Virus record (IMG/VR): IMGVR_UViG_2534681992_000035
Span: 1-24,824 of that record
Length of the DNA stretch: 24,824 nucleotides
Reading direction: 5' to 3' (one strand)
Origin: a virus
Taxonomy: Duplodnaviria > Heunggongvirae > Uroviricota > Caudoviricetes
Shown here: in pieces, positions 1 to 6,000 of the stretch
Layout of the letters: each line of letters begins with the position of its first letter
Position numbering within the stretch: position 1 is the stretch's first letter
Position numbers: made by a program

Positions 1-3000
1 ATGTTAGTTAGTAAAAGAAACGGATTTAACGCTAGCGCAGTTTTGGGTAGTGGAAGTTATAATGAAAATAAATCTTCTAAACACATGGAGCTACTAGCTC
101 ATAGTATTTTAAAATTAATTTGTAAGGAAGCTGCATCAGAGACGTATCGCGGTGCTCTTGAAACTTTACAAAAAATGATGTCTGAATGTATATATCAAGA
201 AGGCAACGCCTTTGTCATTATGGGAGCTGGAGAACAATTAAAACGTATTAAATATGAAGTTGGTGAAAATAACTTAAAGGTATTCAACGTACACTTTAAT
301 AATAATCACGAGTTAGTTAGTTCTGGTGAGCCTGACGTAATATGTTTAAGCAAGCAGGTCTGGGAAAATCTTCTCATTAAACTAAAGCTGGAAAACAATG
401 AAAATGTGTTTTCTGAAACTAAAAAATTATCGAATAAAAATAATGCCGATCAGTTTTTTGAATGCGCTAAAAGAAATGAACAGAACCTTTTCGATAATAT
501 AAGAAAAAGTGATTTTCATGTTGGTTTACTTAAGCCAAGTAGTACGCGTAGTGTTATTTTAGAAACGCCGCCAAATGTCTGTATGGAATCACGTAATTCA
601 TATGAAAACAAAATAGATGAGATTTCATCTTTGTCAGAGTCAAAGGAACACCCCATAGATATTCAAGAAAAAAAAGATGCGTTTGTGAATGAGTTCAAGG
701 GGATATTATTTGATAAAAATGGAAGGTCTTCAGAGTTTCTACTTAATTTTTATGAATGTTGCTATGAGTTTTTACCAAGAGCGCAGCCTCAGGATAAAAT
801 CGAAAGCTATAATTCAGCACTGCAAGCTTTCTCCATCTTTTGTTCATCTACGTTGATACATAATAATATAGGCTTTGATTTCAAATTATTTCCAGAAGTC
901 AAACTGTGTGGGGAAAATCTTGAAACGGTATTCAAATATAAAAATGGCGATGATGTCCGGGAGATAGCCAAAATTAACATTACTCTCCAAAAAGAAGAGG
1001 ATGGTTTATATAATTTAGGTGGATTGGATTTTAAGGGATGCTTCTTTTCTGGACAGAACTTCAGTAACTATGATATTCAATATGTGAACTGGGGAACGTC
1101 ATTGTTTGATCTTGATACTCCGTGTATTTTTAATGCGCCTGCTTACAACAAGAGTAATGAAAAATCATTAAAACCTGTGAGCGAAAACGGTTTAAGTGGA
1201 GTCTTGACTGATCGTAATAATAAAATAAAACTCATCACGGGCGTGGCACCATTCGATGATATTTTATTTATGGATGATGACTTTGATGATAGTTCCTCTG
1301 AGGATGATCCCGTTGAGAATAGTCCTGTTGTGACTAGTCCCGTTGTATCAAGTTCTAAAAGCAGTTTTCAATGATTAATAAATGGCTATTTTTACAAAGA
1401 GATAATAACGTAGATTGAAACAATATGTATTATTGATTGATTAAACGGGATTATTTTTTACACTACAACCATTTTGCTGCCACTACCAAAGAAAAAGGGG
1501 CTACGCTTTCACGTAACCCCTTGATTTATTTGTTGAGCTGGCGGTGTCTGAATTGGTGCTGTAATTGGTTGAAATATTTATTCTAATGTCTGGTTCAGCT
1601 TTCCTTAGCTGCCTGAAAGTTTTTTTGATCTTACCCATCAATAATAGGGTTACGGTACACCACGCCTGACTGATGAACTGCGTGCTCAGGGTTACCTCTT
1701 CAACGTAAAACCGTGGCAGGAGGTCCGGACTGAAAAAACTGCTCAGGACATTATCGGCGGTGGACGCACGGGTAGTCTGTAAACCGAACCGACTGGGGCG
1801 CAGTATGTGGCATCTTGTCGTGCTGTTGGAGGAGCTGTGCAAACGTGGTATTAACTTTCGTGCTCTGGCCCAATCTATATTTGCCCAACAATGGGGGGAC
1901 GAATGCTGTAAAAGTAAAAGAATCTGCGATCTCAAAGTTATTGTGTGATTTTTATGTGAGCAGAAGATATTCATCAGAAACGATTATGTAAATCATTTTA
2001 TTTTGCCGACGGCCTGATTGTCGAAAGAAAAGAATACCCCCGTATTCCCTGAATAGATTGACTTTTTTATCCAACCATACTTCAGCGCACTGCGTTTAAA
2101 AAATGCTTCTTTCTTATGTGGAATATCATCATTTCATCATGATGTCTTTGATGAGCGGTGAACACAATACACTTGCGCTGTCTCTTCAGGATGAATCCCC
2201 TGGTCTGGTGCCTGTGGGCTGATGTTGCAGCAGAGCTAAGGTCGCTTAAACGCTACTCAGTATTCACTTTTCAGAGGATGAAATTTATGAACAGGACCAG
2301 TCCCCATTATTGTCGCCGCTCAGTACTTTCCTTATTGATATCTGCCTTGATATATGCCCCGCCCGGTATGGCGGCCTTCACTCCTGATGTTATTGGTGTG
2401 GTAAACGATGAGACTGTAGATGGCAACCAAAAAGTGGATGAACGAGGTACAACAAATAACACTCATATTATCAACCATGGCCAGCAGAATGTTCATGGCG
2501 GGGTATCTAATGGAAGTCTTATTGAATCTGGTGGATATCAAGATATAGGAAGTCATAACAATTTTGTGGGGCAGGCTAATAATACAACCATTAACGGTGG
2601 CAGACAGTCAATTCATGACGGGGGTATTTCCACAGGTACGACAATCGAGAGTGGCAATCAGGACGTTTATAAAGGGGGTATCAGCAATGGAACGACAATT
2701 AAGGGCGGTGCTTCACGCGTAGAGGGAGGGAGTGCGAATGGAATACTCATTGATGGTGGTAGCCAGATAGTAAAAGTTCAAGGGCATGCTGATGGTACAA
2801 CGATAAATAAGTCTGGCTCTCAGGACGTAGTACAAGGAAGTCTGGCAACGAACACAACCATAAATGGTGGTCGACAGTATGTTGAACAGAGCACAGTAGA
2901 AACAACAACCATTAAAAATGGCGGTGAGCAAAGAGTATATGAGAGCCGTGCGCTGGACACGACGATTGAAGGCGGAACTCAGTCTCTGAATAGTAAGTCA

Positions 3001-6000
3001 ACGGCAAAAATTACGCAGATCTATTCTGGTGGCACGCAAATTGTTGATAACACCAGCACCTCGGATGTTATTGAAGTTTATTCCGGTGGCGTGCTTGATG
3101 TTAGTGGTGGTACGGCAACAAATGTTACCCAGCACGATGGTGCAATTTTAAAAACAAACACTAACGGTACGACGGTGAGCGGTACGAATAGTGAAGGTGC
3201 ATTCTCCATCCACAATAAAGTGGAAGACAATGTGTTGCTGGAAAATGGAGGCCATTTAGAAGTATCTCATTCCGCAAACAAGACGATTATTAAAGATAAA
3301 GGAACAATGTCAGTTTTAACGAATGCTAAAGCTGATGCGACCCGAATAGATAATGGCGGGGTTATGGATGTTGCAGGAAACGCGACAAATACCATAATTA
3401 ATGGTGGCACACAGAATCTTAATAATTATGGCATAGCCACAGGCACCAATATCAACAGCGGAACGCAAAATATCAAAAGCGGTGGGAAAGCTGACACAAC
3501 AATTATATCCTCCGGGAGCCAGCAAGTTGTTGAGAAAGATGGTACGGCAATTGGCAGCAATATTAGCGCCGGAGGCTCGCTGATTGTCTATACCGGCGGT
3601 ATTGCACATGGGGTTAACCAGGAGACGGGCAGTGCTTTAGTTGCCAACACGGGCGCAGGGACTGATATTGAAGGATACAACAAGCTCTCTCACTTCACTA
3701 TTACCGGAGGGGAGGCTAATTATGTTGTGCTGGAAAATACCGGCGAACTGACGGTAGTGGCTAAAACCTCGGCGAAAAATACTACCGTTGATGCTGGCGG
3801 TAAGCTGATTGTCCAGAAGGAGGCTAAAACAGATACCACCAGACTTAATAATGGTGGCGTTCTGGAGGTTCAGGACGGTGGTGAGGCTAAGCATGTTGAG
3901 CAACAATCCGGCGGCGCATTAATTGCTTCCACAACTTCCGGAACCCTTATCGAAGGAACCAACAGTTATGGTGATGCTTTCTACATCAGGAATTCAGAAG
4001 CTAAAAATGTAGTGCTGGAAAACGCTGGCTCATTAACAGTCGTCACTGGTTCCCGGGCAGTTGATACGATTATTAATGCCAACGGCAAAATGGATGTTTA
4101 TGGAAAAGATGTTGGCACTGTACTTAATAGTGCTGGCACCCAAACAATATATGCCAGTGCCACTTCTGATAAAGCAAATATCAAAGGTGGCAAGCAAACG
4201 GTATATGGTTTAGCCACTGAGGCAAATATTGAAAGTGGTGAACAAATTGTTGATGGTGGGTCAACTGACAAAACGCACATCAATGGCGGCACACAAACCG
4301 TTCAGAATTATGGTAAGGCGATCAATACCGATATCGTCTCTGGCCTACAACAAATTATGGCAAACGGGATAGCGGAAGGTTCCATTATTAATGGGGGTTC
4401 ACAGGTAGTTAATGAGGGCGGTCTGGCTGAAAACTCGGTGCTTAATGACGGCGGCACACTCGATGTGCGGGAGAAAGGCAGCGCAACGGGGATACAGCAG
4501 AGTAGCCAGGGCGCTTTGGTTGCAACCACCAGGGCGACGCGGGTCACAGGAACACGCGCGGATGGCGTTGCGTTCAGCATCGAGCAGGGTGCGGCGAACA
4601 ATATCCTGCTGGCAAATGGCGGCGTGTTAACCGTGGAGTCAGACACCTCTTCTGACAAAACACAGGTCAATACGGGCGGACGGGAGATCGTCAAAACAAA
4701 AGCCACTGCGACAGGCACGACGCTCACCGGCGGCGAACAAATCGTCGAGGGGGTGGCGAATGAGACAACGATTAACGACGGCGGAATACAAACAGTTTCA
4801 GCTAACGGAGAGGCAATAAAAACAAAGATCAATGAAGGCGGTACGCTGACAGTTAACGATAATGGCAAAGCGACAGATATCGTCCAGAACAGCGGTGCCG
4901 CTCTCCAGACGAGCACGGCTAACGGTATTGAAATCAGCGGTACTCACCAGTACGGCACTTTTTCCATTTCCGGCAATTTAGCGACCAATATGTTGCTGGA
5001 AAATGGCGGTAATTCATTGGTATTAGCAGGTACCGAAGCTCGCGACTCCACGGTTGGCAGCGGTGGAGCCGCCAACGGCAGTTATCGCAGCAACGGGCTG
5101 GGCGGTCACATTGAAACCGGGATGCGATTTACCGATGGTAACTGGAACCTGACGCCGTATGCATCGTTAACGGGGGTTCACCGCTGATAACCCTGAATAT
5201 CATTTATCCAATGGCATGGAATCGAAATCAGTCGATACCCGCAGTTTATATCGTGAACTGGGTGCAACGCTGAGTTACAACATGCGTCTGGGGAACGGTA
5301 TGGAAGTTGAGCCGTGGCTGAAGGCGGCTGTGCGCAAAGAATTTGTCGATGATAACCGGGTGAAAGTGAATAGTGACGGTAATTTCGTCAATGATTTGTC
5401 GGGCAGACGTGGAATATACCAGGCAGGTATTAAAGCCTCATTCAGCAGTACGTTAAGCGGGCATCTTGGGGTGGGGTATAGCCATGGTGCCGGTGTGGAA
5501 TCCCCGTGGAACGGGGTAGCTGGTGTGAACTGGTCGTTCTGACCATCAACGAAAAAGCCCACATCTGTGGGCTTTCATGTCACCAGGAGCCGCGGCTCCT
5601 TTGCGTATCCTTTTATGTCTCTTCACCGTCTGGTCGGTGTCCTGCTGAGACTGCTAACTTCCTGTTTTTATTGGTGTTGTCCTTATACCGTCCAATCATG
5701 ATTGGTGGAGCTGGCGGGAGTTGAACCCGTGATCGGAATTCACATAGTTTATTGAATATGAACGATTTATTTTTTCACGCAAGGAATTATGTGCATTTTA
5801 CGTACATATTGTTGTCCCGGTAACGTCCTGATTCTGTACAACATTTTGAAATATTTTGCCGTTACGGGGTTGCAGAAATCGCCGTTTTTCCATCGTATTC
5901 TGCAAGGTAAGAGCCGTAATGTCTGAACAGCATTTCCGGTCCTTTATGCCCCATCTGACCAGCAAGCCAGAACAGGTTAACGCCCTGGCTAATGTGCCGA

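Follow-up and report, generated by a model that had tools for sequence, protein, structure and literature searches.

The stretch of DNA analysed here (24,824 nucleotides; hereafter the window) contains an allele of ypjA/ehaD that is almost certainly a non-functional, vertically inherited pseudogene, interrupted by a large in-frame deletion and by a one-base expansion of a G tract. The product of ypjA/ehaD is an AIDA-I-type (type Va) autotransporter adhesin. At the DNA level the locus displays 97% identity with ypjA of Escherichia coli K-12 (b2647; 97.3% and 97.1% in the aligned blocks), with the upstream reading frame matching K-12 ypjA nucleotides 1-2789 at 97.3%. It is preceded by tRNA-Ile, ypjCB and the pinH remnant and followed by an ssrA-type attachment site, and the order ypjCB, pinH remnant, ypjA and then ssrA-type attachment site is shared with K-12. 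Thus, the level of identity, together with the common neighbourhood, indicates that the resemblance to ypjA is not a matter of chance. Downstream of the gene, positions 5704..5730 on the minus strand hold what appears to be a 27-nt copy of the 3' end of ssrA (tmRNA). This copy is the attachment-site core, at which homology to K-12 stops and the prophage starts; in the alignment the last K-12 homology, at 5717, coincides with the psaA/CP4-57 boundary of K-12, and a search of the window for a complete tmRNA gene found none. The broken allele is already known to annotation, as RefSeq/PGAP flags it as a pseudogene, labelling the locus in carriers as either 'frameshifted' or 'incomplete; missing C-terminus'.

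Architecture of the disrupted allele

The upstream pseudogene frame (2287..5187, plus strand), defined by the ORF listing, Pfam and alignment to K-12, consists of 966 codons followed by TGA and encodes, in order, a signal-peptide region, the AIDA-repeat passenger, the deletion scar and 38 residues of the beta-domain. The mechanically called ORF, which likewise ends at 5187, begins at GTG 2158; ATG 2287 corresponds to the K-12 ypjA start and is the start used by PGAP in identical genomes. The N-terminus (MNRTSPHYCRRSVLSLLISALIYAPPGMAAF) contains one difference from K-12 YpjA in its first 31 residues, and on this alignment a Sec signal peptide is predicted. Within the upstream ORF 11 stretches of AIDA repeats were detected (PF16168, E=1.4e-138, Pfam), and the passenger also matches the strand-loop-strand repeat TIGR04415 (E=1.5e-73, NCBIfam).

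The initial annotation proposed that the passenger ORF terminates at 5187 after GGGGG as the result of a +1 frameshift, and both the sequence and the ORF list bear this out. The region around the tract and the stop reads acgggggttcaccgcTGAtaa. The G5 tract (5172..5176, plus strand) is one G longer than the G4 of intact alleles, confirming a G4-to-G5 insertion that moves the frame by +1, such that the final three residues, VHR, are out of frame and translation meets a premature TGA (5185..5187, plus strand). The C-terminal remnant of the beta-barrel lies in the +1 frame (5177..5542, plus strand; Pfam). Deletion of one G from the tract generates an uninterrupted reading frame of 3,255 nt, made up of 1,084 codons and the stop codon and ending in GVNWSF, in close agreement with the fusion of ~1085 residues estimated earlier. 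Within the remnant, the +1-frame ORF 5216-5542 encodes 108 amino acids, again ending in GVNWSF, which PGAP annotates as a CDS (WP_000444409.1, 'autotransporter beta-barrel domain-containing protein'); this protein is an annotation artefact arising from the pseudogene. A GC hairpin lies just beyond the stop codon, at about 5556-5576, and was not called by the intrinsic-terminator scan.

An internal in-frame deletion had also been suspected, and alignment to intact ypjA shows it to be exactly 1,320 nt (440 codons). The scar, at 5057..5060 on the plus strand, joins K-12 nt 2779 to nt 4100, and K-12 residues 927-1366 are gone. A GCA microhomology lies at the junction (5057-5059) and is followed by the imperfect match G.GGTGG.GC; the deletion most likely arose via illegitimate recombination at this short imperfect homology (GCA..GGTGG..GC). 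Intact K-12 YpjA comprises 1,526 amino acids, in line with the ~1500 given in the initial annotation. The window allele differs from it by the 1,320-nt deletion, the additional G and a 6-nt (2-codon) in-frame deletion at 3266..3271 (plus strand). Comparison with the intact allele of ETEC L7 returned the same three differences. The 6-nt deletion, which is evident not only against K-12 and ETEC L7 but also against the remaining pseudogene alleles, is limited to the sub-allele of the window and strain HN68.

Domain loss and its predicted consequences

In K-12 YpjA the Pertactin domain occupies residues 1057-1179, a Pro-rich segment 1179-1240 and the Autotransporter beta-domain 1265-1504 (profile positions 1-254). 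After frame repair the window product matches only positions 97-254/255 of the beta-domain profile (PF03797), and it is thus too short to form a full barrel, as the initial annotation had surmised. Lost in the 1,320-nt deletion are the Pertactin/autochaperone region, the Pro-rich linker and the beta-domain profile up to about position 96 of 255. Indeed a search of the window product for the Pertactin-like autochaperone (PF03212) found no match, the corresponding region falling inside the deletion, and TIGR01414 matches K-12 YpjA and not the window ORF. These lesions and the accompanying domain loss are direct observations.

Type Va secretion requires a complete C-terminal barrel with its linker, and a passenger and translocator encoded in one frame. 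In the window product the barrel is incomplete and the linker missing, and the two parts are separated by the +1 shift and the stop at 5185-5187. We infer loss of function from this domain content. The deletion has cost the protein the end of its passenger, the autochaperone, the Pro-rich linker, the linker-to-barrel segment and about 40% of the beta-barrel from its N-terminal side, and a one-base slippage insertion in the G4 run, giving G5, ends translation at 5187. If anything is made, it would be a passenger of 966 aa with a signal peptide and without a translocator, which would thus not be displayed on the cell surface and would probably be degraded in the periplasm.

Distribution among E. 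coli genomes and alternative readings

In a survey of 5,426 complete E. coli genomes the deletion junction was present in 323 (about 6%), or about 11% of the roughly 2,800 genomes that keep the 3' end of ypjA. Both the 1,320-nt deletion and the G5 insertion are common to every carrier examined. The exact 61-mer containing G5 occurs in 319 genomes, such that 319 of the 323 carriers are identical over this 61-mer, and all 60 carriers sampled span 241 nt, indicating an unchanged tract length; about 2,500 other genomes match across a 60-nt span, consistent with G4. Searches of the complete genomes for the deletion combined with G4, and for G5 with a K-12-type flank, each found none. The carriers, judged by strain names, are presumably mostly B1-type STEC and livestock isolates. 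The sub-lineage in which the passenger frame remains open numbers 56 complete genomes, with an identity of 99% or more to the window over 2100-5700. Elsewhere in the window, a T8 run (11538-11545) and a G6 run (19116-19121) are one base off the otherwise identical genome 2013C-3264. The 486 nt past the junction are 100% identical in the five pseudogene alleles examined and 2.1-2.5% off intact alleles, and this identical 3' end points to a single origin; the 5' parts of the same five alleles are mosaic. Additional lesions are found in individual carriers, comprising the loss of 1 nt at 3012 in VCSW8 and at 3226 in O121 RM8352, an internal stop at codon 558 in E110019 and truncation by IS26 in ES3, and represent independent, ongoing decay. 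Fixation of the lesions in the carrier population and further decay in relatives are thus seen directly. In the sub-allele of the window the 966-codon passenger frame has stayed open and has acquired no additional lesion, which is compatible with recent inactivation or, taken by itself, with some residual use.

It could be argued that the extra G reflects a sequencing or assembly error and that the gene is truly in frame in this strain. Homopolymer length errors do happen, and the T8 and G6 runs of the window differ by one base from 2013C-3264; however, G5 is found in the exact 61-mer of 319 independently assembled complete genomes, which in effect excludes this explanation, no deletion-bearing genome contains G4, and even in frame the product would have no Pertactin domain and no match to positions 1-96 of the beta-domain profile. 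We therefore regard an error as exceedingly unlikely. Alternatively, slipped-strand mispairing at the tract could switch expression of the adhesin by phase variation, since the frameshift lies in a homopolymer of a surface-adhesin gene, and such genes are frequently phase-variable. The tracts of known contingency genes generally run to at least 7-8 nt, and the tract in the window contains five G. There is, however, no tract-length polymorphism among the carriers, the sampled intact alleles show the 60-nt match span consistent with G4, the 'ON' length (G4) would still encode a protein without the Pertactin domain and a full barrel, and relatives of the window allele have acquired more inactivating lesions. 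A switch is thus highly improbable. Of the three explanations that the initial annotation offered for the homopolymer, genuine decay stands; sequencing error and phase variation are rejected on the invariance of G5 and the lack, in the complete genomes, of both deletion with G4 and G5 on a K-12-type flank. A protein-database search with the frame-repaired 1,084-aa sequence also found no in-frame version among the 8,000 candidates scored, which carries little weight as full-length K-12-like YpjA was likewise not among them.

Further readings concern residual function and ancestry. It is conceivable that the 966-aa passenger, the 108-aa ORF or both are expressed and keep some function, as a periplasmic, vesicle-associated or split autotransporter; in its favour are the open passenger frame, a signal-peptide region that barely differs from that of K-12 and the PGAP call of the 108-aa ORF as a CDS. 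Carriers of the same allele, however, contain stops or frameshifts in the passenger at codons 288, 324 and 558, indicating that this frame is not under constraint. The 108-aa ORF covers only profile positions 164-254/255 of the Autotransporter beta-domain (Pfam), a scan of 5150-5760 identified no sigma-70-like promoter ahead of it, and inspection of the sequence revealed no visible Shine-Dalgarno-like element upstream. Retained function is accordingly very doubtful, and there is similarly little chance that the passenger is still made in the open-frame sub-lineage with a barrel-independent role, for example as cargo of the periplasm or of vesicles, or after being exported in trans by another translocator. 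With respect to programmed ribosomal frameshifting, ACG GGG GTT is not known to act as a +1 shift motif, and the upstream stops and frameshifts in relatives argue against the constraint on both frames that such a mechanism would be expected to impose. The final possibility, an ancestral short form from which the K-12 long form arose by gain of 1,320 nt, has nothing specific in its favour and appears vanishingly improbable. The missing segment consists of conserved domains (Pertactin and the N-terminal Autotransporter beta-domain) present in intact YpjA of K-12 and ETEC, both precomputed domains occur in a 1,475-aa match from Escherichia albertii, the beta-domain profile of the short form is broken at position 97, and the junction is confined to the 323 genomes noted above. 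That the short length is usual in a lineage, a proviso of the initial annotation, holds for these 323 genomes; it is, however, a derived and defective form, and not the normal functional one.

Relation to other alleles and known systems

The biological weight of the pseudogene is small, as an accessory adhesin has here undergone ordinary decay. It should be emphasized, however, that STEC 'adhesiome' surveys in which ypjA/ehaD is typed by presence or absence will score the allele as present despite no surface adhesin being possible, a mis-scoring that concerns about 11% of complete genomes with a ypjA 3' end. Biofilm formation has been connected with YpjA/EhaD in reviews (PMC9289746, PMC12547504). 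The literature search returned general statements on YpjA/EhaD, addressing biofilm and prevalence in human STEC, and no description of the deletion/frameshift allele.

The window allele shares with YpjA (K-12 b2647) and EhaD (EHEC O157:H7) its locus, signal-peptide region and AIDA-repeat passenger, and differs in the loss of residues 927-1366, which comprise the autochaperone, linker and N-terminal barrel, and in the frameshift. In-frame ypjA deletions that also take the Pertactin/linker region are found in two other proteins recovered by the protein-database search, P0001 (1,036 aa, E. coli O28/42:H37) and P0005 (950 aa). Their breakpoints, from K-12 aa 791 to 1282 in P0001 and from about aa 985 to about 1284 in P0005, are unlike those of the window, and in contrast with the window allele both retain nearly the whole barrel and have no frameshift; they are deletion alleles independent of the one described here. 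Similar to the contingency loci of Neisseria, Haemophilus and Campylobacter, the window allele contains a homopolymer frameshift inside a surface-protein gene. In contrast with these loci, however, its tract is short (G5) and invariant across carriers, and the product obtained when the frame is restored is defective.

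Lesions of the ypjA/ehaD allele

The broken autotransporter gene is ypjA/ehaD. Window positions 1586-5069 correspond to nt -699 to 2789 of the intact K-12 gene (b2647, 1,526 aa) at 97.3% identity, and 5057-5717 to nt 4097-4755 at 97.1% identity. A mechanically listed ORF extends from GTG 2158 to 5187; ATG 2287 is equivalent to the K-12 YpjA start and is also the PGAP start in identical genomes. The frame reads ...TTA ACG GGG GTT CAC CGC TGA, in which GGGGG occupies 5172-5176 and the stop 5185-5187, confirming where the initial annotation had ended the passenger ORF. A 108-aa ORF (5216-5542, + strand) follows in the +1 frame and ends in GVNWSF, and taking one G out of the tract fuses the passenger to this barrel fragment in a 1,084-codon frame without internal stops, close to the ~1085 aa first estimated.

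Base-by-base comparison with K-12 ypjA revealed three differences, all given on the + strand. The largest is an in-frame deletion of 1,320 nt, or 440 codons (K-12 nt 2780-4099), whose junction lies at a GCA microhomology at 5057-5059, followed directly by the imperfect match G.GGTGG.GC. The others are the extra G in the tract at 5172-5176, which is GGGG in K-12 and accounts for the reported +1 frameshift, and a 6-nt in-frame deletion near 3266-3271. An intact 1,528-aa ETEC allele gave the same picture, so that the internal in-frame deletion, at first only suspected, is borne out by alignment to both intact alleles. At the protein level K-12 residues 927-1366 are absent.

K-12 YpjA comprises AIDA repeats, a Pertactin domain (1057-1179), a Pro-rich region (1179-1240) and a complete Autotransporter beta-domain (1265-1504; profile positions 1-254). 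The upstream ORF of the window retains 11 AIDA-repeat stretches (Pfam, E=1.4e-138), and the 108-aa ORF carries only the last third of the beta-domain (Pfam profile 164-254 of 255). Even after frame repair the product contains only profile positions 97-254, too short for a full barrel as had been proposed, and has no Pertactin match; the NCBIfam autotransporter-barrel model TIGR01414 matches the K-12 protein but not the window's ORF. In type Va secretion, export of the passenger requires a complete barrel and its linker. We infer, therefore, that the locus would be unable to make a surface adhesin, with or without repair of the frame.

Origin and inheritance of the double lesion

It could be argued that the extra G is a sequencing error or, alternatively, the OFF state of a slipped-strand switch; the initial annotation had left both open beside genuine decay. 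The deletion junction occurs in 323 of 5,426 complete E. coli genomes, and an exact 61-mer with G5 in 319, leading us to reject assembly error. In some 2,500 further genomes the match to this stretch spans 60 nt, which agrees with a G4 tract. A spread sample comprised 60 of the 323 carriers, and each gave a match span of 241 nt, with no variation in tract length; a switching tract was likewise rejected. In the same complete genomes, a query combining the deletion with G4 had no perfect match, its top hits all being G5, and a K-12-type flank with G5 matched none exactly; these queries thus provided no intermediate between the intact and double-lesion alleles. Together, these data show that the extra G is a fixed, inherited mutation completely linked to the deletion, and of the options initially raised only decay stands. 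In contrast, T8 (11538-11545) and G6 (19116-19121) are each one base off the otherwise identical genome 2013C-3264, the only differences between the two across 5171-24824.

Five carriers were compared (the window and strains HN68, VCSW8, E110019 and O121 RM8352). All five share the 486 nt 3' of the junction without a single difference, whereas the intact alleles of K-12 and ETEC diverge from them there by 2.1-2.5%. In the 5' passenger part the carriers diverge by up to 4.7%, mostly in patches of the first ~1.2 kb, where up to 43 differences occur per 300 nt. The pattern fits a double lesion that arose once, with the 5' part recombining afterwards. The dead 3' segment may instead have spread into different backgrounds. 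Several carriers have suffered independent further damage, namely 1-nt deletions at window position 3012 (VCSW8) and at 3226 (RM8352), an internal stop at codon 558 (E110019) and truncation of the 5' part by IS26 (strain ES3), as would be expected of a pseudogene freed from constraint. The passenger frame is still open in the window's sub-lineage, but a barrel-independent role for it is very unlikely, as sister alleles carry upstream stops. The ES3 copy (L007:2121-4153) lies on a 32.6-kb contig labelled plasmid, adjoining ParB and AAA family ATPase genes, and may reflect a mislabelled contig or IS26-mediated capture.

Two E. coli ypjA proteins from a public collection have other internal in-frame deletions, joining K-12 aa 791 to 1282 (P0001, 1,036 aa) and ~aa 985 to ~1284 (P0005, 950 aa). 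Both have lost the Pertactin/linker region and kept most of the barrel. Decay of ypjA by deletion is thus recurrent.

The adjoining prophage

K-12 homology ends at 5717, a point corresponding to the psaA/CP4-57 prophage boundary. Positions 5704-5730 (- strand) hold 27 nt that we take to be the reverse complement of the ssrA (tmRNA) 3' end; a whole tmRNA gene is absent from the window. A tyrosine integrase gene (5862-7034, - strand) points toward this copy. At this position other genomes with this ypjA allele carry different elements, and the site therefore looks like an integration hotspot. The prophage context has no bearing on how the ypjA lesions arose.

Several other features were observed. 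The window begins exactly at ypjCB (1-1374, + strand), an unbroken frame of 457 codons whose only stop is the terminal one, where K-12 has ypjC and ypjB annotated separately; a short pinH-like recombinase remnant follows (1712-1879), as in K-12. The lambdoid prophage directly adjoins the ypjA 3' end, at the boundary where CP4-57 ends in K-12, and contains complete, full-length stx1A (22145-23092, + strand) and stx1B (23102-23371, + strand), encoding Shiga toxin 1a, as Stx1a is annotated in 2013C-3264. Directly 3' of stx1B, Rfam places STnc100 (23450-23663, + strand; 190.7 bits) and then the anti-GcvB sRNA AgvB (23665-23724, - strand; 56.6 bits, barely over the gathering score). An isrK sRNA and C4 antisense RNA pair occurs twice in tandem (Rfam; 13933-14774, + strand), coinciding with two adjacent ash-family genes of ~80% mutual identity. 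Relative to 2013C-3264, the T8 run of the window has one additional base. The 115-aa antiterminator Q ORF (19085-19432, + strand) is intact in the window and annotated as frameshifted in 2013C-3264, whose record is one G shorter at the G6 run. One of the two records may be misassembled here; otherwise the difference is real and could affect late-gene control of stx1.

Standing of the locus

In HN68 the PGAP entry for the exact locus is 'AIDA repeat-containing protein, frameshifted', and its coordinates coincide exactly with those initially assigned (2287-5542). In its other form the annotation reads 'ypjA ... incomplete; missing C-terminus', with a separate 108-aa CDS, WP_000444409.1. This CDS most probably arose as a by-product of annotation, as a promoter scan found no sigma-70-like promoter upstream, no Shine-Dalgarno-like sequence is visible there and just one third of the barrel is covered. 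A literature search on YpjA/EhaD returned no specific description of this deletion/frameshift allele. It is, however, an ordinary and common pseudogene allele, present in ~6% of complete E. coli genomes and already flagged by annotation, and involves no new mechanism.

By origin the locus is orthologous to YpjA/EhaD, which belongs to the AIDA-I-type autotransporters and has been tied to biofilm formation (PMC9289746; PMC12547504). In contrast with a contingency locus, it has neither tract polymorphism nor a functional ON state. Three features that define a functional type Va autotransporter are also missing, namely the autochaperone domain, a complete barrel and a single reading frame, and the locus is thus filed as a pseudogene of the YpjA/EhaD family.
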